Shown: one piece after another, positions 9,710-52,101 of the stretch
Numbering within the stretch: position 1 is the first letter of the stretch
Layout of the letters: every line of letters starts with the position of its first letter
Made by a program: the position numbers and the translations under genes
Notes under the pieces: generated by a model
Told to the model about the DNA's origin: nothing
Seen by the model: only the letters and a program-made list of their open reading frames with translations
Databases searched by the model: none
From: Candidatus Woesearchaeota archaeon
Lineage (GTDB): Archaea; Nanobdellota; Nanobdellia; Pacearchaeales; GW2011-AR1
DNA length: 64,000 nucleotides
Assembly: GCA_964639615.1 (NCBI GenBank)
Contig: CAZXHH010000003.1
Span: 18,294-82,293 of the forward strand
Direction: 5' to 3'

Positions 9710-10324
9710 GTGTTAGCTATGAAGGCAAAAAAAGAAGTTTTAGTTATTGTTGCGCATCCAGATGATGAAGTCATTTGGGCAGGAGGAACACTCATGAAAA
9801 TGGATTCTTCAAAGTTTAACAAAACACTAATTGTTTTGTGCAGAGGAAAAGATACAGATAGATATCCAAAATTCATGAAAGTTGCAGAATTCCTAAAAGT
9901 AACTCCCTATATTTTTGATATAGATGATTGTGAAACTGGAAAATATATTCAAATTCCTTCAGAAGATATAATAAATAAAATTTCACAGGTTACAAAAAAC
10001 AAAAAGTATGATATTCTTTACACTCATGGAAAAGAAGGAGAGTATAAACACATTAGACATCTTGATGTAAATAAAGCAGTCAACGAAATGCTTTCTAAAA
10101 AATTACTATCGGCAAAAAAAGTTTTTTACTTCTCTTATCATAAAATGAAAAACAATTTCCAGAACTACGCATTATACAATTCAAATGCAGATAAACTTAT
10201 AAAACTAAAAGAACCTTATCTTAGCATGAAGAAGAAGTTGATAGTTGATGTTTATGGGTTTCAGAAGGGAGGTTTTGAGGAAATTTCTAGCAATAATATA
10301 GAAGCGTTTGACTTAAGAAAATAA
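9710..10324 (+). CDS. PIG-L/LmbE-family N-acetylglucosaminyl deacetylase
   Basis: Signature HPDDE motif (LVIVAHPDDEVIWAGG) and a downstream His (YTHGKEGEYKHIRH). Confidence 0.7.
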   Translation: MLAMKAKKEVLVIVAHPDDEVIWAGGTLMKMDSSKFNKTLIVLCRGKDTDRYPKFMKVAEFLKVTPYIFDIDDCETGKYIQIPSEDIINKISQVTKNKKYDILYTHGKEGEYKHIRHLDVNKAVNEMLSKKLLSAKKVFYFSYHKMKNNFQNYALYNSNADKLIKLKEPYLSMKKKLIVDVYGFQKGGFEEISSNNIEAFDLRK

Positions 10325-10333
10325 AATAGTAAA

Positions 10334-11473: not shown

Positions 11474-11618
11474 AAATTCTTTTAGTAAATAGTTATTGTT
11501 AACAGTTTTAAGTGATTATTATAATATTGTAGGTTGAGTTAAACAAGGTTTGATTTTACAGAGATAATTATTTTTTAAGGAGTTAATAATATTTTTTAAT
11601 TATAACAGAATAAAGAAA

Positions 11619-12722: not shown

Positions 12723-12723
12723 T

Positions 12724-13800
12724 TTATTTTAATTGTCCAAATGAAGCCATAATCTCTTTTAATGAAATTTTTCTTACACTTGTTACAACATCTCCTCCAC
12801 CAGAGTAGATTAAAACAGATTCACTATCTTTATCTTCAACAATTCCTGTTGGAAAAATAATTCTTTTCTGTTGATATAATTTCATTTCATAATCTTGTGC
12901 AGGAACTAAGACATTTTCTGCTTTTGCAATTAATTTTTTTGGATTTTTTAAATCAAATAATGCAAATGAACCACAGTAAGTATAAATTTGTCCTGGAATT
13001 TCTTCAACAGTATGATAAATTAAAAGCCATCCTTTATCTGTTTTAATTGGAGGGCATCCCGGACCAATTCTTCCATAAGATTCATCGCCTTTCTTAAGAA
13101 GATTTATTGCTTTCAAATTGCCCCAAGAAATCAGATTGTCTGAATATGCAATCCATATATGTGGCGGACTAAATTGAAAATTTCCTTCAGGCCTATCATA
13201 TGCAACATATTTTCCATTTATTTTTTCAGGAAAAATTACAACATCTTTATCTTGCTCTCCAAAAATTATTCCTTTTCTCTCCCAATCCTCAAGATTTTTT
13301 GAAAATGCAATAGATGTTGAAATATTCTCTTTTCTTGATAAAGAAACGTAAGTCATTACATACTTATCTTCTATCTTTATTATTCTTGGATCTTCAACTC
13401 CTAATTCTGCATCATTTACTGTTCCATAAAATGTTGGCCTCTTATCAATTGAAAGAATCTTGAAACCACTTTCATCTAAAAGAACTTTTCTTAAATGAGA
13501 AACAAAAGTTAATCTCTTTGTCCCATCTTTAAAATTTATATCAAAATCAGAATTTTTTGTAACAATTGCTTTGTCAAATTTGTCTATTTTTAATTTATAT
13601 CTATTTTTTCCAACCATCCTTGGAGAATAACAATATCTTTTATCCTCTAATTTAATTAATTGTTCAATTACTCTAACATACAAAACTATTTTTCCATCCT
13701 TTCTCCTAGCAGCAGCAGGATTAATTGTTCCAATTATTTTCAACTGCTTAGAAGATGGTTTAATCATCTCTGGTTTAATCAATAATGCCTCTTTTACCAT
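12724..13800 (-). CDS. GH130-family glycoside phosphorylase (beta-mannoside phosphorylase-like)
   Basis: Five-bladed beta-propeller signatures with the EDPRI motif (GVEDPRIIKIEDKYVMTY) and a second conserved Asp region. About 358 aa, typical for GH130. Confidence 0.6.
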   Translation of the reverse strand: MVKEALLIKPEMIKPSSKQLKIIGTINPAAARRKDGKIVLYVRVIEQLIKLEDKRYCYSPRMVGKNRYKLKIDKFDKAIVTKNSDFDINFKDGTKRLTFVSHLRKVLLDESGFKILSIDKRPTFYGTVNDAELGVEDPRIIKIEDKYVMTYVSLSRKENISTSIAFSKNLEDWERKGIIFGEQDKDVVIFPEKINGKYVAYDRPEGNFQFSPPHIWIAYSDNLISWGNLKAINLLKKGDESYGRIGPGCPPIKTDKGWLLIYHTVEEIPGQIYTYCGSFALFDLKNPKKLIAKAENVLVPAQDYEMKLYQQKRIIFPTGIVEDKDSESVLIYSGGGDVVTSVRKISLKEIMASFGQLK

Positions 13801-13955
13801 GTTTATATTATATACTCGAATATAGTTTTTAAATTTATAGAATAATACCTTAATTTTATTATATTTTTTAATGGATTAATTAGTTGAACAAGATTTTTAT
13901 TAATGGTTTATCAATATTGATTAAATATTTGGTAATCTAACTCTATAAAGAAAAA

Positions 13956-14639
13956 CTATATCAAACTTCCAGCTTTTTTATCTACAATTACAACAACATT
14001 CTTGTGTTTTCTTAAAAAGCTTGCAGGGAGATTTTCAGTTATTTTTCCATTCATCATTTCAGCTATTGCTTTTGCTTTTTTCCTTCCAAATGCAAGAAGT
14101 ATAATCTTCTTTGATTTCATAATTGTTGAAATTCCCATTGTAAGGCCTTTTCCTTCAATATGAGTTAATTGAACTAATCTAGTAACAGAATTTAATTTGC
14201 TTCCAGGTTCATTAAACCCAATATGCCCGTTCACACCTATTCCTAAAATCTGTAAATCAATTGTATTTTTCCTTATCTTTGTTTCATATTCTTTACACTC
14301 TTTTTTCCAGTCTCTTTTATTTCCATCAAGCAAATTTATGTTTTCTTTTTTTATATTTAATTTATCAAATACTCTTTTATACATATAATAAGCATAATTC
14401 TTTTTTTCATTTTTGCTCTTAGAAGGAGGATAAAACTCGTCTAAATTAAAAGTTTTGATTTTTGAAAAATCTACTTTTCCATTTTTGTAAGCATTTGCCA
14501 ATCTTTTGTATGTTCTTAATGGAGTTTTCCCAGTTGCAAATCCTAAAACAAGTCTCGGATTTTTATTTATCTCACTTATTATAAGCTCTGATGCTCTTTC
14601 TGCCATCTCTCTTTTATTTTTTACTTTAATTAATTCCAT
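13956..14639 (-). CDS. NagB/Pgl-family sugar-phosphate isomerase or 6-phosphogluconolactonase-like protein
   Basis: Carries GIGVNGHIGFNEPGS, the glucosamine-6-P deaminase / 6PGL signature, and LDEFY. Confidence 0.6.
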   Translation of the reverse strand: MELIKVKNKREMAERASELIISEINKNPRLVLGFATGKTPLRTYKRLANAYKNGKVDFSKIKTFNLDEFYPPSKSKNEKKNYAYYMYKRVFDKLNIKKENINLLDGNKRDWKKECKEYETKIRKNTIDLQILGIGVNGHIGFNEPGSKLNSVTRLVQLTHIEGKGLTMGISTIMKSKKIILLAFGRKKAKAIAEMMNGKITENLPASFLRKHKNVVVIVDKKAGSLI

Positions 14640-14640
14640 T

Positions 14641-15762
14641 TTATTTTAATACTTCTAATCCAGGAAGTTTTTCTCCTGCAATAAAACTAAGCAAAGCCCC
14701 TCCACTTAAACTAATATGTCCAAATTTTTTAATATTGATTCCTGAAGCTTTAATAGCATCACTCAAATGCCCTCCCCCAATAACTGAAAATGCTTTGCTA
14801 TTTGCAACTGCTTTCAAAATTGCGAATGTTCCTTTTGAAAATTCTTTTTTGCTACAATCCCCTGCAGGACCCTTCATGTAAATTGCTTTAGCTTTTTTTA
14901 TTTCAGCTAAATAATGTTTCTGAGTTTTCTCTCCAATATCAAATATCTCACACTTATCGCATGGAAATCTATCTAATAATTTTTCTACTCTTTTTCCATT
15001 TACTTCAACTGCAAAATCAAGAGGTGTTTCAACCTTCTTTAGTTTACTCTTATCTATTTTAATTAGAATATGTTTACTTTCAAGAAACTTATTTTGAAAA
15101 CCGAGAGCTTTTCCTTTATTTATCAAACAAACTTGTCCGAATAATCCACAACTAAGAACTTTATTTTTTCCAAGAAGTTTTATATTATCTTCTGGTTTTG
15201 CTCCACCTAAAATATAAAGTGTATTCTTCAATTTCAATTTTTTCAGTGCGTTAACTTCTCTTTCTAAAATTCTTCCTGCACAGCTCTTCTTAATATACTT
15301 TGGAAGAAGAATAGAAGTCTGCGCTCTATGACAAACAGAAAATGCATCATTTACATAAATTTCACAATGCTTTGAAAAAAATTCAGTTAATTTATTTGGC
15401 TTATCTTCTTTTTCTTCATCTAAAAATCTAATATTCTCCAAGAGTATTGCTTCTCCTTCTTTCAAATTTTTAATTGCTTCTTCTGCTTTCTTTCCAATTA
15501 TATCTTCTACAAACTTAACTTTAGAATATTTGCTTAGCTGTTCAGAGTGTTGCTTTAAAGAAATAAAATCCTCCTCTCCTTTTCTTCCCTGGTGTGCAAT
15601 TATGACAAGCTTTACTTTTTTCTTCTTTAGCTCATTTATTGTTAAAGCTGCTTCTTTAATTCTCTCAGACTTCAATAATTTTTTATTTTGAACATCAGAA
15701 TTTAAATCAGTTCTTAAAAGAACTATTTTTCCAGTAAAATCAAAAGAATCTAAAGTTTTCAT
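14641..15762 (-). CDS. pgk: Phosphoglycerate kinase
   Basis: 373 aa. The N-terminal substrate-binding pattern is KIVLLRTDLNSDV, and there is a C-terminal Gly-rich nucleotide-binding region (FSVIGGGHLSDAI). It is adjacent to gap. Confidence 0.7.
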   Translation of the reverse strand: MKTLDSFDFTGKIVLLRTDLNSDVQNKKLLKSERIKEAALTINELKKKKVKLVIIAHQGRKGEEDFISLKQHSEQLSKYSKVKFVEDIIGKKAEEAIKNLKEGEAILLENIRFLDEEKEDKPNKLTEFFSKHCEIYVNDAFSVCHRAQTSILLPKYIKKSCAGRILEREVNALKKLKLKNTLYILGGAKPEDNIKLLGKNKVLSCGLFGQVCLINKGKALGFQNKFLESKHILIKIDKSKLKKVETPLDFAVEVNGKRVEKLLDRFPCDKCEIFDIGEKTQKHYLAEIKKAKAIYMKGPAGDCSKKEFSKGTFAILKAVANSKAFSVIGGGHLSDAIKASGINIKKFGHISLSGGALLSFIAGEKLPGLEVLK

Positions 15763-16742
15763 TTTAGAAGTTTGATTAAATCAATAATTCTATTTGAATA
15801 ACCATACTCGTTATCGTACCAGGAAAGAACTTTAATCATCTTTCCATTTGCTTGTGTTAATTTAGAATCAAAAATTGAAGAATAAGAATTTTTAATTATA
15901 TCAGATGAAACAAGCTCTTCTTCAGAATACTGTAATATCCATTTCAATTCTTTTTGTGATGCTTTTTTCAAAGCTGCATTAATTTGTTCTTTTGTAACCT
16001 CTTTTTTTAATGTAGCAACGAAGTCAATTATACTTCCGCATGCAACAGGTGCACGAATTGCTAACCCATCCATTTTTCCTTTTAATTCTGGAATTACTTC
16101 TCCAACAGAAGTTGTTGCTCCAGAAGTTGTTGGAATAAGATTTATTGCTCCTGCTCTCCCTCTTCTTAATTTTTTATGAGGAACATCTAAAATAACCTGG
16201 TCATTAGTATATGCGTGAACTGTAGTCATAAATCCTTTTTCAATTCCAAATTCATCGTTAAGAATTTTAACAATTGGAGCTAAACAATTTGTTGTACAAG
16301 AAGCCATTGAAATTATTTTATCTTCTTTCTTAAGTTCTTTTTCATTTACTCCTAAAACAATTGTTGCATCAACATTTTTTCCTGGAGCAGAAATTATAAC
16401 TTTTTTTGCACCAGCCTTAATATGTTTTCCAGCTCCTTCTTTATCTGTAAATACTCCTGTTGATTCTACAACAACATCTACACCTAATTTTTTCCAAGGA
16501 AGTTTTTCAGGGTCCTTTTCAGCGAAAACTGCAATTTTCATATTATTAATTTTCAAAAAACCTTTTCCACCTTCAACAGTTCCATTAAAATTTCCATAAA
16601 CAGAATCATACTTAATCAGATAGACTAAACTTTCAATTGAACCCAAATCATTTATAGCTACAACATCTAATTTTTTTTCAAGTGCTAGCTTCAAAACAGC
16701 TCTTCCAATTCTACCTAAACCATTAATTGCGATTTTCACCAT
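15759..16742 (-). CDS. gap: Glyceraldehyde-3-phosphate dehydrogenase, type I (bacterial/eukaryotic-like)
   Basis: NAD-binding KIAINGLGRIGR and the catalytic-cysteine motif ASCTTNCLAP. Confidence 0.85.
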   Translation of the reverse strand: MVKIAINGLGRIGRAVLKLALEKKLDVVAINDLGSIESLVYLIKYDSVYGNFNGTVEGGKGFLKINNMKIAVFAEKDPEKLPWKKLGVDVVVESTGVFTDKEGAGKHIKAGAKKVIISAPGKNVDATIVLGVNEKELKKEDKIISMASCTTNCLAPIVKILNDEFGIEKGFMTTVHAYTNDQVILDVPHKKLRRGRAGAINLIPTTSGATTSVGEVIPELKGKMDGLAIRAPVACGSIIDFVATLKKEVTKEQINAALKKASQKELKWILQYSEEELVSSDIIKNSYSSIFDSKLTQANGKMIKVLSWYDNEYGYSNRIIDLIKLLK

Positions 16743-25816: not shown

Positions 25817-25899
25817 GCGGGGGTGCCGGAGTGGTCAAACGGGTCAGATTTAGGCTCTGATAGCTTATGCTTACCTAGGTTCGAATCCTAGCCCTCGCA
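25817..25899 (+). tRNA. tRNA-Leu (TAG)
   Basis: Acceptor GCGGGGG/CCCTCGC, anticodon stem TCAGA/TCTGA with loop TTTAGGC, a 14-nt variable arm, and T-arm CTAGG-TTCGAAT-CCTAG. It is followed by an oligo-T run. Confidence 0.75.
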
Positions 25900-25908
25900 C
25901 TTTTTTTA
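25900..25908 (+). terminator. Oligo-T terminator after tRNA-Leu
   Basis: CTTTTTTT immediately 3' of the tRNA. Confidence 0.3.
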
Positions 25909-25914: not shown

Positions 25915-28900
25915 TTAGGCTGTTGCAGGTTTTCCAATTGCATAAACTACATAATCTGCTGTTGGAGATTCATCAAATTTAAGATTCAATTGAACTTCTC
26001 TAAACACTCTTCTATTAACTCTTAAATTCTCAAATGCACTTGGGAATAAATTTGCATCTCCAAATCCAATCCAATCAAATACTTCTGCTTTTCCTGAAGT
26101 TTTGTCAACCCAGTTTAAGAAAACAACACTATGAATTTCATTTCCAGGCCAAGTTATAGAAAGTATATCTCCTTCCTCAATTGTATCTTTATTAATATCA
26201 GTATTTTTACTGCACAAATCAGTATCTCTCTTTACTATTCCATCTTTTAAACAATATGTAAACGAACCCCAAGCAACATTTGCTGAAAGATAAAGATGCT
26301 GAGTACTATCAAAACAATTAGGATATGATGTTCCGCTATCATAATCCCTAACAACAGGGATTCCTTTCCATACCCAAATCGAACTACTCTTATCAATCTC
26401 TGCTCTCTGAGAAGAAGTTAAAGTATCATATTTTACAAAAGGTGTCCCTTTCAATTCTTCTGCAGCATTAAGAATTCTATTCCTAGTGCTTTGACTACTT
26501 AAATAATCGCACTTGTTATTAATTACTCCGCCGCTTATCCATTTATTGTTAACACAATTCAGAGTTAAAGTTCCAACACATTTATTTTCTCCACTTGTAC
26601 AAGTTCCAAAAACATATCCGCACTTTCCATCAATTTGTCCCTTATTTAACCAAGAAGTTCCAGAGCAAGTATAATAATTTGTTCCGTCACATTTCTCTTG
26701 ATTTGTTGTGCAAGTTAGTGTTGATGTAGAGGGAGGAGTAATTGGAACAAGAGGAGTAACATACCCGCATTTTCCATTGACCTTTCCTTTATTTACCCAA
26801 GCGTTATTTGTACATTGATAATAAGTTGTTCCATCACATTTCTCTTGATTTGTTGTGCAAGTTAGTGTTGAAGATAAAATAATTGGATTTCCATCTTTCA
26901 TTACTGCTCCTTTGTCTTTAAGTATTTTTTTACCCTCTTCATAATTTTTATCTTTGAGAGCAAGAATTAGATAATTATTTTCATTAATTGATTTAACAAT
27001 GTCGCTATTTTTATTATACTCTTCCATTAACCCGCTATCTATTGGCCCTACTGGATTATAAGCAGTCCCACCTATACTCCAATACCATCCATTATTTTGT
27101 TTAAGATATTTATAATAGATTGTATATTTATCTAAAAACTTAAAAACAAAAACGCTTGTAGCTGCACTTGGATCTGAAGAATCAGTAGATAATTTATTTG
27201 TCGTAGTTGTTGAAATTATTTTTTCATCACAGCTTCCAATAAATGCTTGCTCTGTATAAACACAATCTTTCTTTAATTTCATCTCAATAGCTTTACATTC
27301 TTCTCTATCGCAAAAATTAAGTAAACCTGTTCCACATTCAGAACAAGATTTTACATAAAGGAAAATATTTCTTTCAGCAGTTGTAAACATAGACAGTAAA
27401 ACATCCTTATCATAATTTGTACATGGAGGATTTATTTTTTCATAATCACAATCAGAAGAAATTATAGTGCTTATAGGAGTTTGTGTAGTAGAAGTAGATG
27501 TACTACTTGATGTTGTAGAACTTGATGATGAACTAGTAGAAGTTGAAGAACTTGAAGTTCCAGTATTAGTAGAAGTAGTGCTACTTGAAGAAGTTGTTGT
27601 GACAGATTCTAAAACAATTTTACTTCCATCTTCCATTTCAGCATCATTATTATTCAATATCTTTTTTCCTTCAGAATAACTCTTTCCATTAATTAAACTG
27701 ATAACTTCTGAAATGCTAGATGATGGAGTTTTACCCGAATATTTTCCACTAGCAACTGTTGTAGTAGAAGAAGGCATCCAAGTTGAATAATCAGAATAAG
27801 GAGTCCATTTCCAACCAGAATCATATTTAAAGTATATATTTGAACCTCCAGTAAGTCTTACAAATATGTTTCTTTTAATTACAAAAATTTCTGTTTTTTG
27901 CTGCGAAGACAAAGGTGTTGTAGTTGTAGTTTGTGTTACTGGTGAAGATTCCAAAATTATTTCGCTTCCATCTTCCATCATAGCACCATTAATTTTTAAG
28001 ATTGATTTACCCTCGGAATAACTTTTTCCATTAATTGAATTTATTATCTCGAGATTATCTGATCTAGGACTTTCTCCTTTATACTCTCCTGTAGTTACTT
28101 CTGTTTGAGAACTATCCATCCAATTTGTTTTATCTGGAGACCATTTCCATCCATTGTTATATTTATAATATAATCTATCTCCACTAAAATCAAATAATCT
28201 AGTTGTAAAGAAAACTTCAACTTTTTGCTGTGAACTCGAAGTTGCTGGAGCAGATAAACTCTTACCATTGTATAAATCAACTAATTCATAATAAATTTTT
28301 TCAACATTTTCAACATAATTATTATCTCCTGTACATCCCCAACCATTGTATCCTCTTAATGCAGCTTCCCATCCAGAATAACTTCCTATAATCAATCCAT
28401 TACACATAAAATTCCTAGTTCCAGAAGAAGGTTTATAATTTTGTTTCAAAATTTTAGCACCAACATTAATATTTTGCTGTTCATCTTCTAATAAAACTCC
28501 TTTACATTTTGTTAAATCAATAGGCAAACCTAAAGCAAGACTTCCTTTACCACAATGAACTTTTGCATTCACTTGCATTAAACCAATATCTCCTCCAGCA
28601 GATTCTACAGATTTACAATTGCTTTCATGCATCATAATTGCCAACAAAAGAAGCTGATCTGGAATATCATTATTTGTAGAAGCATCAGTAATCCATCTTG
28701 CATAATCCTCACACTTTGTACCACAATAACATTTGTAATTTGAATTGAATACGCTTGTTGAAAGAGATTTCATTAAATCTGCTAATCTATAAGTATTTCT
28801 TTCTTCAAAAGATTTTTCAAGAGTGTTTAGTTTTCCTTCATCATAAACTTTCTTAAAATAAGCTGATTTGTAATCAAATAAGATTGCTGCTCCTTGATAT

Positions 28901-31900
28901 AAATCAGTCAATTCTAGCAATTTTGCAACTTCAATTTGGTCTTGATTAAATTCTTTATTCTCTCCATACACACTATTCCAATCTGTGCTATACTTATCTT
29001 TTAACTTCCACTCCCATCTAGAATATTCTTGATTATATTTATAATAAATTGTTCTCATAGATTTCTCTGAATGGTCAGAAAATTCTACTGTAAATAATCC
29101 AGTATTATCCATCAAAGTTAATTCATTTGTTTTATCTGAAAGTTCAGCACTATCATCTTTTTGAAGCTCATCAATTAATACCTGCATTCCACCAATATAA
29201 TCTCCGTTTTTATTCTGGAGATATTTAATTATTTTAAGATAATTTTCTTCTGTAACTGGATTGGTATATCCCTTTCCAAGCTCTTCAACATTATACCATG
29301 CACCTTCAGCTTTTTGGCATCCATTAGCAAATTGCCACTTTCCATCTTTAAATCTAAAGCAACGATCATTTAATGAAAAAATATTCTTATCATTAAAGAA
29401 TAATTTGGGAGAATTATAATTGTCATTAAATTCTTTATCAAATTCTGGCTTTATAATTTCAGCATTTTTGCCTATTGGAACATCTTCATTGTTTATATTT
29501 AATGTAATATCTTCCATACAAATTCCAAGATCCACATCACATCCTTTTTCACATTTTTTTCTAACAATAGGACCTTTCTCACAAACTCCTGTCTCAGGGT
29601 CTTGCATTCCAAAATAAGTATTTGAAACATAAGGGTCATTAGCATCTATTCCACAAAAATCTCTACATGGAAATTCTACTTTAACTTTTGTTAAAGCCAT
29701 ATCTGAATAAGATTTTCCTCTTAAAAAGAAAAGCTGTCCTTTTTGATTGCTAAAAAATACTTTCTCAATTATTGCATTAATTAATTCTATTTTCTTTAAT
29801 GGAGATCCTTCAGCGTTTATCTCTTCAAGCTTAAGATTAAATGCTTCCTCACTTAGATAATCCTCAGACAAATATTGAAATGATTCTTGTCCAACTTCAT
29901 CTAAAGCTTTTTGTTCTAAATTCATTGCTTTAATAACACTCTTAACGCTATCAGTATCTATCCAACATCCGATATTATCATTTCCACAAGAACCAACTCT
30001 TTTCCATTTTGCATTCTCTAATCCAGCATTTATATCTGTTCCTTGCCCAGGGTCATCGGTCGCACAAATTCTTGTTATTCCTTGAGCATAAATTTGTGGG
30101 TCAATTAAATTATTAGCTGCGCTTTCAAGATTTAGATTTAACAAGCTGTACAAACTTGCACTTCCAGAAATACATTCCTTTTCAGTTTTAATATCTGTTT
30201 GTGAAGCTTGCTGTGTAAGATATAAATCATCCAAATAATTTAAACCAAATGAAGTTGAAACTTCCTTAAACCCACATTCTAATTGTCCGTTTACCTCAAC
30301 GCATAATTCACTATATCCAGAAGGTGCAGTAAAGTCAGTTGTATTTGAAGTGTACCCTCCCTTAGCAATATATCCTGAAGCAACTATCCTGTTTTGAACA
30401 GTATCAAGATAATATGAACTTCCTGAACCTCTTAAATAAACCTTGTAATATGCTCCAGTATCTTTCCCTGCATAAATATGGAAATAAACTTTATAATGTG
30501 ATGTTGGTGGATTTGTAACTGTTGTTAATTGATTTTCATCAAATTTAGCTGTAAATTGTACAGGAGAATCTGGTTCAACTAAATTATCTAAGAAGCTTCC
30601 ACTTCCAGGATAACTTGCTGAAACAAATGTTCCACACAATTCGCTTCCAACCTCTTCAGTTGAACGTACCTTAAATGCTCTATAAGAATCTTCAGCATAA
30701 TATTGTTTGAAATAATCTATTGAATTCTGAGCTGTTTCAAAAGCAGATGAAATTGCTTGATACTCTCCTCCGCCTTTTTTATTCTCTCCAGTTATAACAC
30801 CCAATAATTTTGGAAGAGCAGTTTTTATTATAGGCAATGATTGCTTCCAGAAAAATTCACAAGTGTAAATACTATTAATCTCATCGCATATTCCTATTGT
30901 TTCTCCTGTTTCAATACTTCTTTGCAAACAATCTTTGTAAGATTTCTGAATTGAAAGCCAACTATCAATACCAGTATAAATTCCAGACAAACAGAATGGA
31001 ACATAAACATCTCCTCCTGCCCACTTTGCATTTGGATAACAAAGAGCAATACTCCCAATTATTCCAGATTGAATTACATTTTGAACAGGATATTTTCCTC
31101 CCAAATCACATCTTGAACTTGGACAAATTACAGGATCACATAAATTAAATAATGTAGCACAATCTTTTGCAGACATGAAATCAGTACATTGCGTTGCAGG
31201 ATTTTGTACAGCAGGTTCTCCAACCTTCATCTTTCTTCCATTAATCTTAACATAATTTACATTCTCTTGAGAAGCTCTAGCATTTTGTGCAGCTTGAATT
31301 GCATTGTCTGCTTTTACAACCAATTGATAACTTTCATCTTCTTTTAATCCAGGGAAATTAGTATATTTCTGACCAGTATTCAAATTGAACAATTGGCAGA
31401 TATCATCTCCAAAATCTTGAAGAGAAAATTCTTCTATTCCATTTGCTCCAACATTACATACCCAGAAGCTTGTAACTCTTCCAGATAAATCATATGAAGT
31501 CTCAGGATGTTTAATTCCAGCGTACCATCCATCTTTAACATCGAAGGGTACAACAGCAGGCAATCCCTTATATGGAGAGGTTTCATAATATTTCAATAGA
31601 ATATCTTTATTTCCATAAGAAGATTTGTAAGTATTCTTATAAGATAACTCATTGTATAATTTAAAATGTAAATCAAATGGATTCTGTTTGCCTTTTTCTT
31701 TATCAACTATCTTCAATTCTTCAACACCATTATTAATAACAATTTCATATGTTTGTAAAACAACTCCATCTTTTGGATTATCATAAATAACAAGGTACTC
31801 TTTTGCACTATTTGAAGTCTTTAATGCAAAAGCATAATTTTCTGGAGAAATTGGAGTTTCATCAAATTTCTCAATATTTACATTTGCATAATGAGTTGAT

Positions 31901-34900
31901 TTAAGTTGAACAGGATTAGTCACTTGTATTTCCTGCATTTTTACAATTTTATCAAATGACCCAACCAATGTGTTATCTCCCATACCTGTTCTCTGCTCAA
32001 AGGTATTTTGGACAACAAATTCTTTTGCATTATTTGCAACATCTGCCAAAGAAGAAGTTAATCTTGTTTGTACAACTTCATTAGTAGGGCTATTCTTTAA
32101 AGCTAAAGCATACAATTCTATTTCTCTCAATTGTTCAATAGTATACTTGTTATTCTCCCATCCATCAGTTGTTAAAATTTTATTTAAATTTTCAATTTGA
32201 AGTTCCTTTTTCTGATCATCTGTTAGAGAATTTAATGTGGTCCTTACACTTTCTGAATAATCATCAACAAATCCTTTTTGATTAACATAATTTTGAGCAA
32301 TTCCTTTTTCATCATTCATATTAGCATTTTCAAATTTCTTAATTTCTTCATCCTGATATTTCATTAAAGAATAATAGCTATTAACATCTGATTCAATTGC
32401 ATCTGCATTATCCAAGAAACATGCGTCCATTGATTTATACTGCTTTTCAGAATACATCTCATTACATCTTTCATTCCATCCTCCAGCACCATTCATAACT
32501 TCCTGTCTTGCAATTGATTTTCCACCAACATTTGCAATTAAATTTTTGAAAGTCAAAACAGCTCCTGCTCCCATACAAGCAGACTTCATTGTCTTAACAA
32601 CACTATAAAGAGCATCGGAAGCCTTTTGCCAGTTTTCAATTGATTTATTTAATTGATTGATTCTATCTTTTGTCATTTCTGGAGAAAACTTAAATGGAGA
32701 AACTCTTTTTTCAATACCAATTTTATAACTAAAAGTACTATTACTCTTTGCAAATTTTATTTCTGGAGTTACAGATACTTTTGCTATTTTATTTAAATGA
32801 GTCTCTGTAATTGTAAAACTATATCCACCATGCGTTTCAGACATTCCCTTTTTAAGAGTATAACTATTTGTTTCAAAAGCTTTACTCAATGTTGACCTAT
32901 CTCCCAAATTTAATTTTAATTCAACTGAATCCCCATCAATAGATTGAAGCATAATGAATTCTGGAGTTTCTGCTTCTTTCTCTCTAAATCCTTTAAGAAT
33001 AATTTGTTTATCTTTCATCAAATCGAAAACTTCAGTTTTTCCGTTAGGCCCAGTCACTAAAATTTTAGCACTATAATCTCTTAAACTTGGTTCTTTAATT
33101 TCTTCCAAAGAAATAACCTTTGTAATTCCATTGATTGTTATATCCTTAGAAGAAATTTGAGAATTTGAAAGATGCAATTCGTCTGCACACATATATAAGC
33201 TTCTATAAGAAAATGGATAACTCTCTTCATATTTTTTACATAATTCAAGCATACTCTTTCTCTGTCCAGCCCAACTTGCAAGATAAATTTCTTCATACAA
33301 TGCTTTTTGCCCTAATGTCTCCTCTGAATTTTCTTTTTCGAGTTCTCCAGAAAATCTATTAATCACTGTTTCAAAATCATCCATTGCATTTTGATAGTAT
33401 GTATTAAATTCTTCGTCTTTAATTTCTAAATTTTCAGCATTTGCAAATCCCCCAAGAATAACGAAATTTCCTTCAACATTTTCTTCTTTTTGATTGTAAT
33501 ATAAATCATAAAAAGATTCACCTTTAATTACCCACTTTCCAAATTGCATTGTTTTTCCTGCAATATAATTTGCAAATTTACTTGTTGCGTCTAATGCTGA
33601 TGCTCCGCTTGATGAAACATGTTTAACAGTATTTGCATGAGAGGCTACTGACTCAAGTTCATCATCAGTTAACACCTCCTTATGTACTGGTAAAGCAACA
33701 AGATAAGCATACAATTTATTAAAATCAGTAGAATCATCTTCTGTTCCAACATACCCTAAATAAACTGATTTTGTTCCATCAGCTGTTTTATACAACCAAT
33801 CTCCAACATTATATACTCCTTCTTTTCCATTGATTGTTAAATTAATCTGAGGGAAAACTCTTAAAGTAAATGCTTTTCTTTCACTTGCTTCATCTGCTCC
33901 ACTACATCTTATTGTTACATCAGAATTAACTCCATTTTTATTCATATCAATTACCTTACATTTATTATCATAGAACATTTCATCTTCTGCAACTTCAGAA
34001 TAATCTTCATTTACTTTTAGACTCGCTCTTGTTTGCGGGTCTTCAACACCATTAAGAGTTAATTTCAAACTTGAAAGACATGGGCTTATTCCTGGAAGAT
34101 AGATTTTATCTGCTGTTGATTCACCTTCTTTCAATTTTATATTAGAGGCGTATTTCGCAAGGCTAAATTCTCTATCTCGCTTAGACAATCCACTTGCAAC
34201 TTCACTATCAGAATAAATTGAAATAGTTGCTGTTTTATCATCCCCGTCAACAGACTCTGCTCTTAAATATCCTCTTCCCTGCCAGAAACTGTAATGTTTA
34301 TAATTGTCTTGCCACTCTTCATCATCCTCAAATACTGGAAGATAAAATACTGCTTTTCCTATTCCATAACTATTCTCAACATCGTAAGTTAGCTCTGCAG
34401 TTAAATTTCCTTCAACCCAACAAACCTCTCCTCCTAATCCTCCTGCTGCTTTTTTACAATTTTTTAATGCAGATTCATTTGGTTGCTGTCTTAGAGTAAT
34501 CATTACATATCCGAGATTTTGCAAAGTTGCTGGATTTTCTAATTTTTGCACATTATATGAAGAACCTAATGCTGCTTGTGCAGGCTGATAGCCCAAGTTT
34601 AATACTTCTTTTGGATGCTGACCAGAAAAAGTAATCCAATCAATTGCTTTAACGTCTACAAAAGGATTGATTTGCAAAGCGTTTAATTGACAAAAAACAC
34701 GTACATTTTCTTCCTCCAATAAATCGCTTCTAACAACAGCTGGAGTACAACTCAATGGGGCTATTTGCATTATAAAATCTGTTCCCTGAGTACACATCTC
34801 GTCGTTAATTCTCAAACTTTGCGAATTTGAGAAAATACCAAGACCCATTGCATTGTTATACTGACTTGAATAATAAGATTGAACATAAGCTGAAGTAAAT

Positions 34901-34965
34901 ACTAAAGAAAATAAGAATACAGCCAAAAACAAAATACTAATAACTAATTTTTTAGAAAAATTCAT
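25915..34965 (-). CDS. Giant (3016 aa) secreted multidomain surface protein carrying an SLT lytic-transglycosylase domain
   Basis: Signal peptide (MNFSKKLVISILFLAVFLFSLVFTSAYVQ), ~2000 aa of unassigned N-terminal region, an SLT domain, three ~95-aa repeat modules, a Ser/Thr-rich linker, Cys-rich modules and a C-terminal Cys/His domain. Its start ATG overlaps the upstream gene's stop. Confidence 0.8.
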   Translation of the reverse strand: MNFSKKLVISILFLAVFLFSLVFTSAYVQSYYSSQYNNAMGLGIFSNSQSLRINDEMCTQGTDFIMQIAPLSCTPAVVRSDLLEEENVRVFCQLNALQINPFVDVKAIDWITFSGQHPKEVLNLGYQPAQAALGSSYNVQKLENPATLQNLGYVMITLRQQPNESALKNCKKAAGGLGGEVCWVEGNLTAELTYDVENSYGIGKAVFYLPVFEDDEEWQDNYKHYSFWQGRGYLRAESVDGDDKTATISIYSDSEVASGLSKRDREFSLAKYASNIKLKEGESTADKIYLPGISPCLSSLKLTLNGVEDPQTRASLKVNEDYSEVAEDEMFYDNKCKVIDMNKNGVNSDVTIRCSGADEASERKAFTLRVFPQINLTINGKEGVYNVGDWLYKTADGTKSVYLGYVGTEDDSTDFNKLYAYLVALPVHKEVLTDDELESVASHANTVKHVSSSGASALDATSKFANYIAGKTMQFGKWVIKGESFYDLYYNQKEENVEGNFVILGGFANAENLEIKDEEFNTYYQNAMDDFETVINRFSGELEKENSEETLGQKALYEEIYLASWAGQRKSMLELCKKYEESYPFSYRSLYMCADELHLSNSQISSKDITINGITKVISLEEIKEPSLRDYSAKILVTGPNGKTEVFDLMKDKQIILKGFREKEAETPEFIMLQSIDGDSVELKLNLGDRSTLSKAFETNSYTLKKGMSETHGGYSFTITETHLNKIAKVSVTPEIKFAKSNSTFSYKIGIEKRVSPFKFSPEMTKDRINQLNKSIENWQKASDALYSVVKTMKSACMGAGAVLTFKNLIANVGGKSIARQEVMNGAGGWNERCNEMYSEKQYKSMDACFLDNADAIESDVNSYYSLMKYQDEEIKKFENANMNDEKGIAQNYVNQKGFVDDYSESVRTTLNSLTDDQKKELQIENLNKILTTDGWENNKYTIEQLREIELYALALKNSPTNEVVQTRLTSSLADVANNAKEFVVQNTFEQRTGMGDNTLVGSFDKIVKMQEIQVTNPVQLKSTHYANVNIEKFDETPISPENYAFALKTSNSAKEYLVIYDNPKDGVVLQTYEIVINNGVEELKIVDKEKGKQNPFDLHFKLYNELSYKNTYKSSYGNKDILLKYYETSPYKGLPAVVPFDVKDGWYAGIKHPETSYDLSGRVTSFWVCNVGANGIEEFSLQDFGDDICQLFNLNTGQKYTNFPGLKEDESYQLVVKADNAIQAAQNARASQENVNYVKINGRKMKVGEPAVQNPATQCTDFMSAKDCATLFNLCDPVICPSSRCDLGGKYPVQNVIQSGIIGSIALCYPNAKWAGGDVYVPFCLSGIYTGIDSWLSIQKSYKDCLQRSIETGETIGICDEINSIYTCEFFWKQSLPIIKTALPKLLGVITGENKKGGGEYQAISSAFETAQNSIDYFKQYYAEDSYRAFKVRSTEEVGSELCGTFVSASYPGSGSFLDNLVEPDSPVQFTAKFDENQLTTVTNPPTSHYKVYFHIYAGKDTGAYYKVYLRGSGSSYYLDTVQNRIVASGYIAKGGYTSNTTDFTAPSGYSELCVEVNGQLECGFKEVSTSFGLNYLDDLYLTQQASQTDIKTEKECISGSASLYSLLNLNLESAANNLIDPQIYAQGITRICATDDPGQGTDINAGLENAKWKRVGSCGNDNIGCWIDTDSVKSVIKAMNLEQKALDEVGQESFQYLSEDYLSEEAFNLKLEEINAEGSPLKKIELINAIIEKVFFSNQKGQLFFLRGKSYSDMALTKVKVEFPCRDFCGIDANDPYVSNTYFGMQDPETGVCEKGPIVRKKCEKGCDVDLGICMEDITLNINNEDVPIGKNAEIIKPEFDKEFNDNYNSPKLFFNDKNIFSLNDRCFRFKDGKWQFANGCQKAEGAWYNVEELGKGYTNPVTEENYLKIIKYLQNKNGDYIGGMQVLIDELQKDDSAELSDKTNELTLMDNTGLFTVEFSDHSEKSMRTIYYKYNQEYSRWEWKLKDKYSTDWNSVYGENKEFNQDQIEVAKLLELTDLYQGAAILFDYKSAYFKKVYDEGKLNTLEKSFEERNTYRLADLMKSLSTSVFNSNYKCYCGTKCEDYARWITDASTNNDIPDQLLLLAIMMHESNCKSVESAGGDIGLMQVNAKVHCGKGSLALGLPIDLTKCKGVLLEDEQQNINVGAKILKQNYKPSSGTRNFMCNGLIIGSYSGWEAALRGYNGWGCTGDNNYVENVEKIYYELVDLYNGKSLSAPATSSSQQKVEVFFTTRLFDFSGDRLYYKYNNGWKWSPDKTNWMDSSQTEVTTGEYKGESPRSDNLEIINSINGKSYSEGKSILKINGAMMEDGSEIILESSPVTQTTTTTPLSSQQKTEIFVIKRNIFVRLTGGSNIYFKYDSGWKWTPYSDYSTWMPSSTTTVASGKYSGKTPSSSISEVISLINGKSYSEGKKILNNNDAEMEDGSKIVLESVTTTSSSSTTSTNTGTSSSSTSTSSSSSSTTSSSTSTSTTQTPISTIISSDCDYEKINPPCTNYDKDVLLSMFTTAERNIFLYVKSCSECGTGLLNFCDREECKAIEMKLKKDCVYTEQAFIGSCDEKIISTTTTNKLSTDSSDPSAATSVFVFKFLDKYTIYYKYLKQNNGWYWSIGGTAYNPVGPIDSGLMEEYNKNSDIVKSINENNYLILALKDKNYEEGKKILKDKGAVMKDGNPIILSSTLTCTTNQEKCDGTTYYQCTNNAWVNKGKVNGKCGYVTPLVPITPPSTSTLTCTTNQEKCDGTNYYTCSGTSWLNKGQIDGKCGYVFGTCTSGENKCVGTLTLNCVNNKWISGGVINNKCDYLSSQSTRNRILNAAEELKGTPFVKYDTLTSSQRAEIDKSSSIWVWKGIPVVRDYDSGTSYPNCFDSTQHLYLSANVAWGSFTYCLKDGIVKRDTDLCSKNTDINKDTIEEGDILSITWPGNEIHSVVFLNWVDKTSGKAEVFDWIGFGDANLFPSAFENLRVNRRVFREVQLNLKFDESPTADYVVYAIGKPATA
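26545..26900 (-). repeat. Three tandem Cys-rich ~37-aa modules within the giant protein
   Basis: LTCTTNQEKCDGTTYYQCTNNAWVNKGKVNGKCGYV occurs twice near-identically and a third time diverged. The DNA repeat CCGTCACATTTCTCTTGATTTGTTGTGCAAGTTAGTGTTGA occurs at ~26685 and ~26835. Confidence 0.6.
27465..27612 (-). repeat. Ser/Thr-rich low-complexity linker within the giant protein
   Basis: Translates to TTTSSSSTTSTNTGTSSSSTSTSSSSSSTTSSSTSTSTTQTP, a likely O-glycosylated stalk. The DNA is GTAGAAGT-like repeats. Confidence 0.6.
28276..28715 (-). other. SLT (family-1 lytic transglycosylase / lysozyme-like) domain within the giant protein
   Basis: Motifs AIMMHESNCKSVESAGGDIGLMQVN (ES...GLMQ), NINVGAKILKQNY and ALRGYNGWG match the SLT catalytic-Glu, N..GA.YL and AYNAG blocks. 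This spans about protein residues 2085..2230. Confidence 0.7.
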
Positions 34966-36800
34966 TTAAATGTTACCCCCAATTCTTTTGTTTCAAACAA
35001 CAAATAATTTTCTTGTATTTTTTCAAGTGTATCTGGTGATGGAAGACTTTCTGCATTTATTATTAATGTCTTTCCAGAGTTAAGTTTATCTTCACTAAAA
35101 CTAGAATTTACTTTTCCGCCTCCAGCCAAAGCATTTGAAATTATTTGCGCTGGAATCTTAACATCGAAACACTCTTTTTTAGTCAATCCCAAAATTCCTC
35201 CTATTGAAGACTGAGGAACATCAACGCACTGTCTTTCTGAGCTTTCCCCTAATTCTAAACTTGAATTCTTGTAAATATATACTTGAACTTCATACTCTCC
35301 TTCAGCTAATTCGACTTCTTTCTGCTCAGGATATGAAACTACTCTTGAAAAATCATCTGAAGTAAAATAAATTACTGCATTCTTAGCATAATTCTGATTA
35401 TCTAATTTAAGCTGTAGAGGAATTGTGTAAATCTTTGATAGATAAATTGAAACACTTCCTCCATTAACTGTTGAATACAAAACATTTGCTTCTTTATATC
35501 CATCTGCTTTTGCTGTTAAATATCCATTAATACATTGAGGGAAATCATCAGTTAACTTACCTTTTTCAGTTTCTCCTATAAAGCATTCAGTTCCAAGACA
35601 TTCATAAGATACTTGTGCATTTAATGGATTTAAATCAGAATCAAAGACTGCAACATTAACTTGAGTATTTTTTTCTTTACATAATTCGTTATCCCCTAAA
35701 TCTGCTGTTTCTGGATTTGCAGTTTCTCTTGGCATATTTCTTTGTATTATTACTGCTAATGGAAATTGGAATATTTCGTCTTTATCACTAACTTGAACAA
35801 GAATAGGATACTTAACATTGTAAACAAAATGATAAGAAACATAACAAAATCCTAATATTCCTAGTCCTTGCTGATTTCCAACAGGATTTGCAATCATAAC
35901 TCCATTATCTTCAGAAGGTAAAACTTCAAAACTATAAGTCCAATCACGAGAATTTATGAAATTTACTTGATGTTCTGAAGGGATATTTGGCACTCCAACA
36001 TTAAAATATTCATCAACTGAATTTTCATTCTTTAAATTTTGAGTATTCAATTCAATTGCCTCACTTAAATCAGAAAAAATATTATTTGCTCTCCAGACCA
36101 TAGGAGAACAAGTCATTTCAACTCCATCTACAGGAGCATACAATCTAAGTGTATCAATAGCATAATTTTCAAGGAATAATTTTTCCTGTTCATAATTATA
36201 TACCTCTAATGCAGAATCATAAAGAGCTCCCAATTCTGAATTTATAATTATCTTGTGCTCATCTATAGAATAACTTTGCTCTTCATTTCTTGCTGCAAAA
36301 TTCATATTTAAATTAAGAACAATATCATGGGAATTTATTGTTATATCTGAATTAGGTTCATCCATCACAATTTCATAACCTTTATCGTAAAATTCATCAA
36401 ACAAACAATTTCTAACTCTTAATTCAATAAATCTCTCAAGTTGATTTTGCATTTCTTCTTTTGTGGGCACCTGTTCTCTTTCAATATTGTTTCCAGAAAC
36501 ATAATACCAATAAGGAATTGGATTTCCTAAAAAGTTCAATTGAGAACCAAAAGGCATGTATTCTGAACCTGCTTGATATTCTGGTAGATAAATATACCCC
36601 CCTTGGCTTTCAAGCAAATTTGCTCCTAACTCCAAATCTTGTTCAAGACAAGAACTAAATGTTCTATAAACGGGGGTTATCTGAGAAGGCATCCTATTAC
36701 TTTTTATTTCATCCTTAAATGCAAAAACCAAAACTGCTAAGGCTACAATTAATATTGCAATTATAATAAAAACAGTTACTTGCCCCTTTTTATTTATCAT
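34962..36800 (-). CDS. Secreted or membrane-anchored hypothetical protein (~612 aa), operon partner of the giant protein
   Basis: N-terminal signal anchor (QVTVFIIIAILIVALAVLVFAF). The ORF track starts at a TTG (36821), but the ATG at 36800 (MINKKGQVT) has a strong GGGGGAAAAG Shine-Dalgarno-like site. Its stop overlaps the giant gene's start. Confidence 0.6.
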   Translation of the reverse strand: MINKKGQVTVFIIIAILIVALAVLVFAFKDEIKSNRMPSQITPVYRTFSSCLEQDLELGANLLESQGGYIYLPEYQAGSEYMPFGSQLNFLGNPIPYWYYVSGNNIEREQVPTKEEMQNQLERFIELRVRNCLFDEFYDKGYEIVMDEPNSDITINSHDIVLNLNMNFAARNEEQSYSIDEHKIIINSELGALYDSALEVYNYEQEKLFLENYAIDTLRLYAPVDGVEMTCSPMVWRANNIFSDLSEAIELNTQNLKNENSVDEYFNVGVPNIPSEHQVNFINSRDWTYSFEVLPSEDNGVMIANPVGNQQGLGILGFCYVSYHFVYNVKYPILVQVSDKDEIFQFPLAVIIQRNMPRETANPETADLGDNELCKEKNTQVNVAVFDSDLNPLNAQVSYECLGTECFIGETEKGKLTDDFPQCINGYLTAKADGYKEANVLYSTVNGGSVSIYLSKIYTIPLQLKLDNQNYAKNAVIYFTSDDFSRVVSYPEQKEVELAEGEYEVQVYIYKNSSLELGESSERQCVDVPQSSIGGILGLTKKECFDVKIPAQIISNALAGGGKVNSSFSEDKLNSGKTLIINAESLPSPDTLEKIQENYLLFETKELGVTFK

Positions 36801-36930
36801 CTTTTCCCCCTTCCTTTTCAACTTTTTTCTTTATCAATTCTATAATCTCAGTATTAATATCTTTCTCAATAAGATCTTTAAATTTCTTCCAGATTTTTTC
36901 ATCCTCTATTAGAAGCAGGTATTTTTTCAT
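36790..36930 (-). CDS. Small RHH-like protein (46 aa), first gene of the giant-protein operon, not in the ORF track
   Basis: My manual translation gives MKKYLLLIEDEKIWKKFKDLIEKDINTEIIELIKKKVEKEGGKDDK. A GAGGGA RBS lies 6 nt upstream, and the stop overlaps the next ATG (ATGATAAATAA). Confidence 0.35.
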   Translation of the reverse strand: MKKYLLLIEDEKIWKKFKDLIEKDINTEIIELIKKKVEKEGGKDDK

Positions 36931-36980
36931 TTATCCCTCTTTTTACCCCGGTACTTAAGCTAGTAAAGAAAGGTGTGCTA

Positions 36981-36989
36981 TATAAATGT
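36981..36989 (-). promoter_or_regulatory. Putative TATA box of the giant-protein operon
   Basis: ATTTATATA on the minus strand ~50 nt upstream of the small-ORF ATG. This would give a ~25-30-nt leader carrying the GAGGGA RBS. Confidence 0.3.
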
Positions 36990-37158: not shown

Positions 37159-37371
37159 TTAACCAGTAAATCTTTTCAATCTTAAGAAATTAATTCCGCC
37201 AAGAATCATTAAAATTCCACCAACAAAAATTATCCATTTGTCTATTGTAGCAAAAGCTGCAGGAATTTTTATAAATTGCAATCCAAAATTAATAAAATAT
37301 ACTCCTAATATTAAATACAATACAAAAAATGCTCCACCACCACTTCTTACCATATCTAAAAGAAAGTACAA
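37159..37371 (-). CDS. Small membrane protein
   Basis: 70 aa with two hydrophobic helices and Gly-rich segments. Confidence 0.3.
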   Translation of the reverse strand: MYFLLDMVRSGGGAFFVLYLILGVYFINFGLQFIKIPAAFATIDKWIIFVGGILMILGGINFLRLKRFTG

Positions 37372-37411: not shown

Positions 37412-37483
37412 GGTCCCATAGTCCAATGGCTAAGACGTGTCCTTGACGTGGACAAGATCCAGGTCCGATTCCTGGTGGGACCA
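37412..37483 (+). tRNA. tRNA-Val (GAC)
   Basis: Acceptor GGTCCCA/TGGGACC, anticodon stem TGTCC/GGACA with loop TTGACGT, and T-arm CCAGG-TCCGATT-CCTGG. Oligo-T follows. Confidence 0.75.
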
Positions 37484-37484: not shown

Positions 37485-37751
37485 TTAGTTTTTCCCACCT
37501 TTACTCTGTCCCCAATGTTCATCTAAAACCTGAATATCAAACTCCTTCTTATTTAATCCACTTACTTCTAACAATTCATTAAACAATTCTTCAGAAATGC
37601 ACCTTTCTTCTACAAAATAATTCTTTAATGTAGAATAATTCAAATTCAATCTGTTTCCAAGTTCCCTTAGAGAAGGGCAATTTATCTTTTCAAGTACATT
37701 CTGGATAAATTTTCTTTGCTCTCCCTGCTTAAACTTAATTCTATTAGGCAT
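37485..37751 (-). CDS. Small HTH-like protein
   Basis: 88 aa. LRELGNRLNLNYSTLKNYF resembles a helix-turn-helix. It lies directly next to tRNA-Val at the edge of the giant-protein island. Confidence 0.3.
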   Translation of the reverse strand: MPNRIKFKQGEQRKFIQNVLEKINCPSLRELGNRLNLNYSTLKNYFVEERCISEELFNELLEVSGLNKKEFDIQVLDEHWGQSKGGKN

Positions 37752-51974: not shown

Positions 51975-51987
51975 CTTTATTTATCAT

Positions 51988-52101
51988 AGCCCCACCAGGA
52001 TTCGAACCTGGGTCCCGGCCTCTCCTTGCATAAGCGAGATGTGAAAAATGCTCGCATTTTACACCAAAGGGCCGTATACTTGACCACTGTACTATGGGGC
52101 T
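51988..52101 (-). tRNA. tRNA-Gln (TTG) with a ~42-nt intron after position 37
   Basis: Exons fold as acceptor AGCCCCA/TGGGGCT, anticodon stem CGGCC/GGCCG and loop CTTTGG^A, with T-arm CCAGG-TTCGAAT-CCTGG. The intron TGTAAAATGCGAGC...CTCGCTTATGCAAGGAG forms a GCGAG/CTCGC helix. The ORF-track entry 51977..52174 is spurious. Confidence 0.65.

Follow-up and report, generated by a model that had tools for sequence, protein, structure and literature searches.

What use would an archaeon that makes no murein have for a secreted protein of 3016 amino acids (aa) that carries a murein-cleaving domain? The question is raised by a locus in a 64,000-nucleotide (nt) stretch of DNA from a Candidatus Woesearchaeota archaeon (contig CAZXHH010000003.1, positions 18,294 to 82,293; hereafter the window), where three adjacent genes encode a 46-aa protein (orf46), a protein predicted to be held in the membrane (the partner) and the giant itself. 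The model that best fits the data, and that we regard as probable though well short of assured, is that the partner and the giant form a vertically inherited two-component surface complex that would present murein hydrolases to bacteria. An original prediction made from the bare sequence had already proposed a device aimed at bacterial peptidoglycan; that proposal is now supported, on sequence evidence only, by conserved catalytic motifs in the SLT domain of the giant and by other murein enzymes found in its family. The three genes are:

25915-34965, minus strand: giant gene, an open reading frame (ORF) of 3016 aa
34962-36821, minus strand: partner gene as the longest ORF, 619 aa from a TTG start
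34962-36800, minus strand: partner protein from the likelier ATG start, 612 aa
36790-36930, minus strand: orf46, a 46-aa ORF

The giant combines a predicted export signal, a large N-terminal core and a C-terminal tail of 1266 aa, within which repeats were located with hidden Markov models (HMMs):

34888-34965, minus strand: predicted Sec-type signal peptide, aa 1-26, with predicted cleavage between TSA and Y, inferred from the sequence
29716-34887, minus strand: family-defining core, aa 27-1750, without a known domain or fold match
30565-31203, minus strand: most conserved core segment, aa ~1255-1467, Cys-rich and moderately hydrophobic, with an invariant GGGEY motif
28867-29388, minus strand: copies 1 and 2, both degenerate, of a ~90-aa family repeat (YYKY..GWxW), aa 1860-1939 and 1967-2033, second-round HMM, E 3.7e-9 and 1.7e-7
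28261-28713, minus strand: SLT/GH23 lytic transglycosylase domain, aa ~2085-2235, PF01464
27607-28203, minus strand: repeat copies 3 and 4, aa 2255-2339 and 2364-2453, HMM E 2e-29 and 3e-26
27466-27606, minus strand: Ser/Thr-rich linker, aa ~2454-2500, from sequence composition
27211-27459, minus strand: 8-Cys module, aa 2503-2585, from Cys positions
26875-27147, minus strand: repeat copy 5, aa 2607-2697, HMM E 1.6e-18
26500-26865, minus strand: three tandem 4-Cys modules (LTCTTNQEKCDGTxYYxC...GKCGY), aa 2701-2822, from the sequence
25918-26475, minus strand: C-terminal Cys/His/Asp domain, aa 2831-3016 (186 aa), from alignment

Family-1 lytic transglycosylases (GH23) are defined by an E-S motif containing the catalytic Glu, a G-L-M-Q motif and an A/G-Y-N-x-G motif. 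In the giant these correspond to E2114-S2115, G2128-L-M2130-Q2131 and Y2206-N2207-G2208, and because each is 94-100% conserved in 78 SLT domains of the family, the domain looks functional. PF01464 matched aa 2097-2207 with 25.9 bits when the whole protein was searched and 27.1 bits when the tail was searched, above the gathering cut-off of 21.3, and the best E value for SLT in relatives was 7.9e-20 (Pfam). The SLT domain reported in the original prediction is thus confirmed. The SLT segment alone gave only a weak match to a C-type lysozyme in the PDB (E 0.15).

The other tail components first read from the sequence, namely three ~95-aa repeats, Cys-rich modules, a Ser/Thr-rich stalk and a C-terminal Cys/His domain, are all present. 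The repeats measure ~90 aa, and the HMM adds two degenerate copies before the SLT domain to the three clear ones after it, giving five in total. Of 237 giants, 141 contain this repeat, most often with two copies directly after the core, and it is a candidate wall-binding module. Ser and Thr make up 55% of aa 2401-2500; the 8-Cys module is detectable by BLAST in 20 of the 237 giants, and the three 4-Cys modules gave no significant Pfam match. The Cys/His domain was found in 23 of the 237, sometimes in two copies, with C2884, G2932-D2933, H2945 and D2964 invariant in 12 aligned sequences. It has the residue order Cys ... GD-x(n)-His ... polar third residue, a match at motif level only, and is an unproven candidate for an NlpC/P60-type papain-like hydrolase. 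Searches of Pfam and the PDB with this domain, including a profile search, gave no significant match; one member carrying it hit Amidase_5 at E 0.1, and when its profile was aligned to E. coli MepS (hhalign) only the GD...H motif was paired, with a probability of 2.4%.

The family is defined not by the SLT domain but by the N-terminal ~1750 aa, which have no known family or fold. Residues 1 to ~1750 of the giant were covered in all 119 homologues, while aa 1750-3016 were covered in 6-38 (BLAST coverage). The best-conserved block spans aa 1126-1675, identity in the segment at aa ~1255-1467 is 0.5-0.8 per 25-aa block, and aa 1101-1760 contain ~17 invariant Cys residues. An exhaustive HMMER search with aa 1101-1760 returned 1070 clusters at 50% identity, 915 of them at E ≤ 1e-30; the matches listed are up to 3779 aa long and, where long enough for full length, carry the core region at the same relative position. 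By these sequence matches the family of the giant is large and sharply bounded. It is confined to one archaeal lineage, the homologues of giant and partner coming from metagenome-assembled genomes named Pacearchaeota, Woesearchaeota, Nanoarchaeota or Nanobdellota. One contig with a partner-giant pair (L034, DATKUW010000047.1) is labelled 'Bacillota bacterium', probably through a binning or labelling error and not as a bacterial occurrence.

The original remark that the N-terminal region resembles nothing recognisable agrees with library, profile and fold searches alike. Whole-protein searches with the giant, the partner and orf46 against Pfam, NCBIfam, PHROGs and PDB sequences returned the SLT domain as the sole match, the giant-family profile found no significant relative among PDB sequences, and a fold search with an AlphaFold2 model of core aa 1101-1760 found no match. 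That model (mean predicted local distance difference test, pLDDT, 64) contains confident beta-rich domains, but pLDDT falls below 50 across the most conserved, Cys-rich region, where helices are modelled at very low confidence. Low pLDDT at aa ~1255-1467 despite conservation may mark an oligomeric or conformationally switching element. Upstream, aa 1-26 form the only stretch of the giant with a 19-residue Kyte-Doolittle mean above 1.5. A second transmembrane segment is ruled out, since hydrophobicity is high only there.

In contrast to the core, the C-terminal tails appear to be swappable, lineage-variable cassettes of murein hydrolases or binding repeats. Among 51 complete giants of GTDB species genomes the shortest tail has 13 aa and the longest 918 aa, against 1266 aa in the window. 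About a third of members carry an SLT domain (28/120 by precomputed Pfam annotation; 16/50 in a scan of tails comprising the window's own and 49 from GTDB species genomes; 78/237 giants). Besides SLT, the scanned tails contain Amidase_3, VanY/Peptidase_M15, glucosaminidase, LRR, DUF1615 and APP_N, and the precomputed annotation of other members adds M23 and ankyrin to VanY and LRR. A few relatives (P0289, P0311 and P0276) have an SLT domain at aa ~620-850, inside the N-terminal core and not in the tail, which indicates that SLT was inserted at more than one site. Near one giant bearing M23 (locus L003) lie further large unannotated proteins of 894 aa, 672 aa and at least 1279 aa (L003 2355-5039 and 20769-24148), so that there may be several surface giants per genome.

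The recruitment of several unrelated classes of murein-specific enzyme to the same position points to murein as the target, and this convergence is the strongest sequence-level argument for bacterial peptidoglycan. The enzymes could alternatively remodel a wall polymer of the archaeon's own, as pseudomurein exists in some archaea and the protein is universal and vertically inherited in its lineage. However, SLT, Amidase_3 and VanY act on murein containing MurNAc and D-Ala, unlike pseudomurein, the 64-kb window showed no mur-type genes, and the enzymes occur in only part of the family, which together make this explanation highly improbable.

A conserved trunk with exchangeable enzymatic ends is also typical of polymorphic toxins, and the giant might instead be released as a diffusible bacteriolytic toxin, similar to a bacteriocin or polymorphic toxin and used for competition or scavenging, with the partner as a secretion or maturation helper. 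The giant does carry a predicted Sec signal that would be cleaved, it lacks an anchor, and archaeal peptidoglycan hydrolases are reported to kill bacteria in a 2025 PLoS Biology paper ('Archaea produce peptidoglycan hydrolases that kill bacteria', PMC12352652), which describes Nanoarchaeota as rich in such enzymes. A trunk of 1750 aa and an obligatory, anchored stalk partner nonetheless exceed the needs of a diffusible lysin, many members have no enzyme at all, and no immunity or export genes are linked to the locus. Directly downstream of the giant there is no immunity gene, that position being taken by tRNA-Leu and TFIIB; an organism without murein would need none. A released toxin is accordingly a distinctly unlikely alternative.

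The surface complex favoured here depends equally on the partner, which is better conserved than the giant. It has at least 1986 homologues, and the 120 listed are 50-66% identical to it and nearly all full length; none of these 120 has a Pfam domain, and the partner profile found nothing significant in the PDB. Its ATG at 36800 is a likelier start than the TTG and is preceded by a Shine-Dalgarno-like run, GGAAGGGGG. The resulting protein is the signal-anchored partner of ~612 aa that the original prediction described, and its N-terminus, MINKKG/QVTVFIIIAILIV, combines a class III-like (prepilin-like) signal or anchor motif with a helix. The FlaFind-type motif ([KRDE][GA][ALIFQMVED][ILMVTAS]x3 followed by a hydrophobic N-terminal helix) was found in 93 of the 120 homologues, with Q7, F11 and I13 invariant, and the partner is its only true case in the window. 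The AlphaFold2 model (pLDDT 68.6) consists of a long N-terminal helix (aa 4-32), an alpha/beta region and three C-terminal beta-sandwich domains. In Foldseek searches the sandwiches matched the B. anthracis protein TIE (E 2e-6), a streptococcal ancillary pilin (E 5e-6), Sulfolobus SlaB (8qox_B, E 6e-6) and the SpaA and SpaC pilins. The template modelling (TM) score against SlaB is only 0.12-0.16, and the match is one common to many unrelated beta-sandwich arrays. As TM-scores are low, the likeness to stalk proteins is architectural and is not evidence of homology.

Partner and giant are closely linked wherever the locus was retrieved. The partner had 388 matches in GTDB species genomes, of which 80 loci were retrieved, and in ~74 of these an ORF with the giant core follows the partner directly, usually overlapping it. 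In the other loci only 0-1.7 kb lies downstream of the partner, or a frameshift is possible. The synteny that the original prediction proposed to look for is seen for the order of partner and giant, which is conserved in DPANN relatives; orf46 was found in 39 of 84 loci.

Such coupling raises the main rival explanation, that the main role of the pair is structural, in an S-layer-like envelope system comparable to SlaA/SlaB of Sulfolobales (PDB 8qox), with the partner as stalk, the core as canopy and the hydrolase tails as secondary additions. SlaA and SlaB are likewise encoded by adjacent genes for a very large secreted protein and a smaller anchored beta-sandwich protein. The wide distribution of the pair (388 or more species genomes) and its constant place in the chromosome, the tight coupling of the two genes, the SlaB match of the beta-sandwich stalk and the conservation of the core even where the tail is missing all favour this explanation. 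Other observations speak against it. There is no sequence homology between the two pairs, the core shows no likeness to S-layer proteins in its sequence (profile against the PDB) or in the fold of aa 1101-1760, the gene order is reversed, and the giant carries enzymes. The partner's predicted anchor is an N-terminal, prepilin-like one, whereas that of SlaB is a C-terminal transmembrane helix.

Glycosylation sites provide a further distinction. The giant has 7 N-X-S/T sequons where shuffled sequences give 34.4 ± 4.9 (~3-5-fold depletion), and its 1266-aa tail has none where 17.8 are expected from shuffles. Observed-to-expected ratios are 0.34 across 119 giant homologues and 0.49 across 119 partner homologues (~2-fold depletion), compared with 1.07, that is, no depletion, in 46 other proteins of the window. 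This pattern fits selection on exported proteins to escape N-glycosylation, and provides independent support for extracellular exposure of both the giant and the partner. Since heavy N-glycosylation is typical of archaeal S-layer proteins, the depletion also argues against a classical protein of that kind, in which sequons would be enriched. Together with the low TM-score against SlaB, these observations make a primarily structural role unlikely, although it ranks ahead of a released toxin and is partly compatible with the two-component hydrolase-presenting complex.

The surroundings of the operon bear on its origin and include the following features:

25817-25900, plus strand: tRNA-Leu(tag)
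36979-36986, minus strand: TATA-box-like TTTATATA, ~50 nt upstream of the orf46 ATG, read from the sequence
37159-37371, minus strand: orf70, a small protein with two hydrophobic helices, between orf46 and tRNA-Val
37412-37483, plus strand: tRNA-Val(gac)

Coordinates and tRNA calls agree with the three overlapping minus-strand genes between tRNA-Leu and tRNA-Val that had first been described. The ATG of the giant and the stop of the partner overlap by 4 nt, and between the stop of orf46 and the ATG of the partner the overlap is 11 nt. The TTTATATA box is a candidate promoter for the operon and would fit a single orf46-partner-giant transcription unit. The window is archaeal, encoding TFIIB, S8e, S3Ae, Gins51, RadA, SRP54 and L1/L10, and its GC content is uniform at ~0.30.

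The original prediction had offered a horizontally acquired tail- or tape-measure-like lysin as a second possibility. In its general form, this would make the cluster a phage or mobile-element module (tail, tape-measure or conjugation-type lysin) inserted between tRNA genes. Two observations recommend it, namely the flanking tRNA genes and the general knowledge that SLT, M23 or NlpC/P60 domains end long phage tape-measure proteins and conjugation proteins of Gram-positive bacteria. The composition of the operon is, however, native: GC content at third codon positions is 0.16, compared with 0.18 ± 0.035 in 46 other window genes, and codon usage does not leave the range of these genes, so that the comparison suggested at the outset does not set the operon apart. 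The giant had no PHROG match at E ≤ 0.1, the neighbourhood in the window and in relatives consists of housekeeping genes with no integrase or phage genes, and the family is confined to a single archaeal lineage. The order S8e, TFIIB, tRNA-Leu, giant, partner, orf70, (tRNA-Val), orf88, S3Ae is found again in relatives with giants of only ~40% identity, where the same tRNA-Leu(tag) and tRNA-Val(gac) flank the pair. The lack of a PHROG match, the native composition and the conserved context rule out an origin as a phage, island, tail or tape-measure element, and we give an acquired mobile module of any kind next to no credence. The locus is chromosomal, vertically inherited and compositionally native.

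The same comparison extends to polymorphic toxins and to the wall hydrolases of conjugation systems and phages (CwlT, PrgK and SLT/M23 tape-measure proteins). These share with the giant an N-terminal trunk bearing swappable murein hydrolase modules and the combination of a glycosidase with a putative peptidase. The system described here differs from them in being archaeal, chromosomal and vertically inherited, without linked secretion or immunity genes and without homology in the trunk.

Two further small genes accompany the pair, one of them a member of the operon. The 46-aa ORF, described in the original prediction as ribbon-helix-helix (RHH)-like, is a real conserved gene but has no RHH profile match. 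Its consensus is MKKYLLLIEDEKLWxKFKxxIxKDINTEIxxLIKKK, and in the 39 related loci that have it, it always abuts the partner start. Mismatch rates at its three codon positions are 0.20/0.05/0.38, third positions varying eight times more than second positions, which is the pattern expected of coding sequence and identifies orf46 as a genuine gene. No RHH match was found in Pfam at E ≤ 1, and alignment of its profile to an unverified CopG sequence (hhalign) gave a probability of 0.8%; by eye, a beta-alpha-alpha pattern is compatible with an RHH protein but unproven. The second gene, orf70, was absent from the original prediction and may be part of the partner-giant system. It probably starts at the ATG at 37353, giving 64 aa, and has its own TATA-like box, TTTAAATA. 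It was found in 68 of 84 related loci (tblastn E < 1e-3) on the same strand, at a distance of 50-400 nt before the partner in most and much further upstream in a few, and has no Pfam match. On the far side of tRNA-Val, orf88 (37485-37751, minus strand) encodes an 88-aa protein, ...CPSLRELGNRLNLNYSTLKNYF..., that appears helix-turn-helix-like by eye; it is conserved in 17 related loci and has no Pfam match.

In the model that we favour, the orf46-partner-giant operon, preceded by the small membrane-protein gene orf70, would be typical of Pacearchaeota/Woesearchaeota-type DPANN archaea. The partner would be held in the membrane by its hydrophobic, prepilin-like N-terminal helix and project a beta-sandwich stalk. 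The giant would be exported by Sec and, itself lacking any anchor, is probably retained by the partner. Its 1750-aa core would act as a scaffold and its tail as a lineage-variable cassette, which here would consist of five repeats, a GH23 domain whose catalytic Glu is intact, a Ser/Thr linker, Cys-rich modules and possibly a second, papain-like wall hydrolase. The archaeon itself produces no murein, and murein-specific enzymes of other kinds occur elsewhere in the family; bacterial peptidoglycan is therefore the likely substrate, and the complex would serve for attachment to the walls of bacterial hosts or neighbours, for breaching them or for scavenging them. What we infer from sequence is that the proteins are exported, that the partner anchors the giant, that the two form a complex, that the enzymes are active and that the target is bacterial.

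Several observations weigh against this model. Approximately 60% of the scanned tails have no recognisable hydrolase and some giants are nearly tail-less (13-34 aa), so the core must have a function of its own. The Cys/His domain and the repeats have no verified function, as searches with them gave no significant match. The class III signal of the partner is a motif match only, and no prepilin peptidase (A24) was matched among the ~40 window proteins scanned at the thresholds used. Physical interaction between partner and giant is deduced from gene linkage only, and the AlphaFold2 models are moderate (pLDDT 64 for the giant segment and 69 for the partner). To our knowledge, no experiment has been performed on any member of the family and no bacterial host of Pacearchaeota has been demonstrated.

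A more far-reaching version of the model, which we put forward tentatively as a possibility and not as the expected outcome, is that the core, the partner, orf70 and orf46 constitute a lineage-specific surface organelle of new fold. This organelle would display interchangeable murein-cutting or murein-binding modules in order to attach to and open bacteria, and the Cys-rich segment at aa ~1255-1467 would engage the target envelope.

Other features of the window lie outside the operon. A cluster of sugar-handling genes at 9710-16742 adjoins the genes for the lower-glycolysis enzymes GAPDH and PGK. It encodes a PIG-L-type GlcNAc deacetylase, a GT4 glycosyltransferase, a GDE_C/GH100-like enzyme, a GH130 phosphorylase and a NagB-like glucosamine-6-P isomerase, and is compatible with the use of scavenged amino sugars. 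Another possible secreted protein, of 308 aa and with a CAP (cysteine-rich secretory protein) domain, is encoded at 5453-6379 (minus strand). A sixth tRNA of 115 nt (51987-52101, minus strand) was found by Rfam with no call from ARAGORN and may be an intron-containing archaeal tRNA.

Proteins resembling the giant have been reported before. In Pacearchaeota and Woesearchaeota, Castelle et al. 2021 (PMC8204110) reported proteins that reach 3000 aa and contain a lytic transglycosylase domain, proposed that they serve in attachment to or degradation of the bacterial wall, and cited earlier sightings (Rinke 2013; Castelle 2015). The same idea recurs for GH23 proteins in Vigneron et al. 2022 (PMC9723730) and in later surveys (PMC10936187). 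The large proteins of fam00969 (PMC8204110) share with the giant their lineage, size (up to ~3000 aa), SLT domain, predicted secretion and proposed role. The giant corresponds to the published description of that family in its 3016 aa, SLT domain, N-terminal signal and Pacearchaeota/Woesearchaeota-type homologues, the likeness being one of description and not of a member list. The main interpretation, attack on the bacterial wall, is thus a rediscovery for a family that was already noted but uncharacterised. The original claim of having no precedent holds for the gene trio, which is uncharacterised, but not for the giant, whose family is in the literature (PMC8204110).

The present description differs from those available for fam00969. 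Where the latter, in the passages searched, characterise the family by the SLT domain only, it is defined here by an SLT-less core of 1750 aa, with SLT in approximately a third of members and other hydrolases in the tails, and the description further includes an obligatory partner gene and a pair of small genes upstream. Neither the partner nor the core-plus-cassette architecture was found described in the literature searched, and the same is true of the small genes and of the sequon depletion. Secreted multidomain proteins of very large size that are implicated in envelope attack are also known from other organisms with reduced genomes, namely the SPEARE proteins of Nanohaloarchaeota, the 'Archaeovorins' of Omnitrophota, some of which also contain SLT domains (bioRxiv 10.1101/2023.11.21.568195), and the giants of Vampirococcus (PMC8080830). 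Their sequences are unrelated to those described here and their domain sets differ, and the present case would set an archaeon against a bacterium, with a conserved partner.

The wider importance of the system lies in what it implies about hosts. All cultured DPANN archaea known to us live on other archaea. The present system is widespread, and it bears on who hosts Pacearchaeota and Woesearchaeota and on whether a major DPANN radiation lives on bacteria. A family that is present in hundreds of species genomes, is vertically inherited and has repeatedly been armed with different murein enzymes ranks among the strongest genomic hints of physical contact between DPANN archaea and bacteria, and the type of tail might predict the wall chemistry of the host. 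If the possible surface organelle outlined above exists, bacteria, and not archaea, would be the hosts of this major DPANN radiation.

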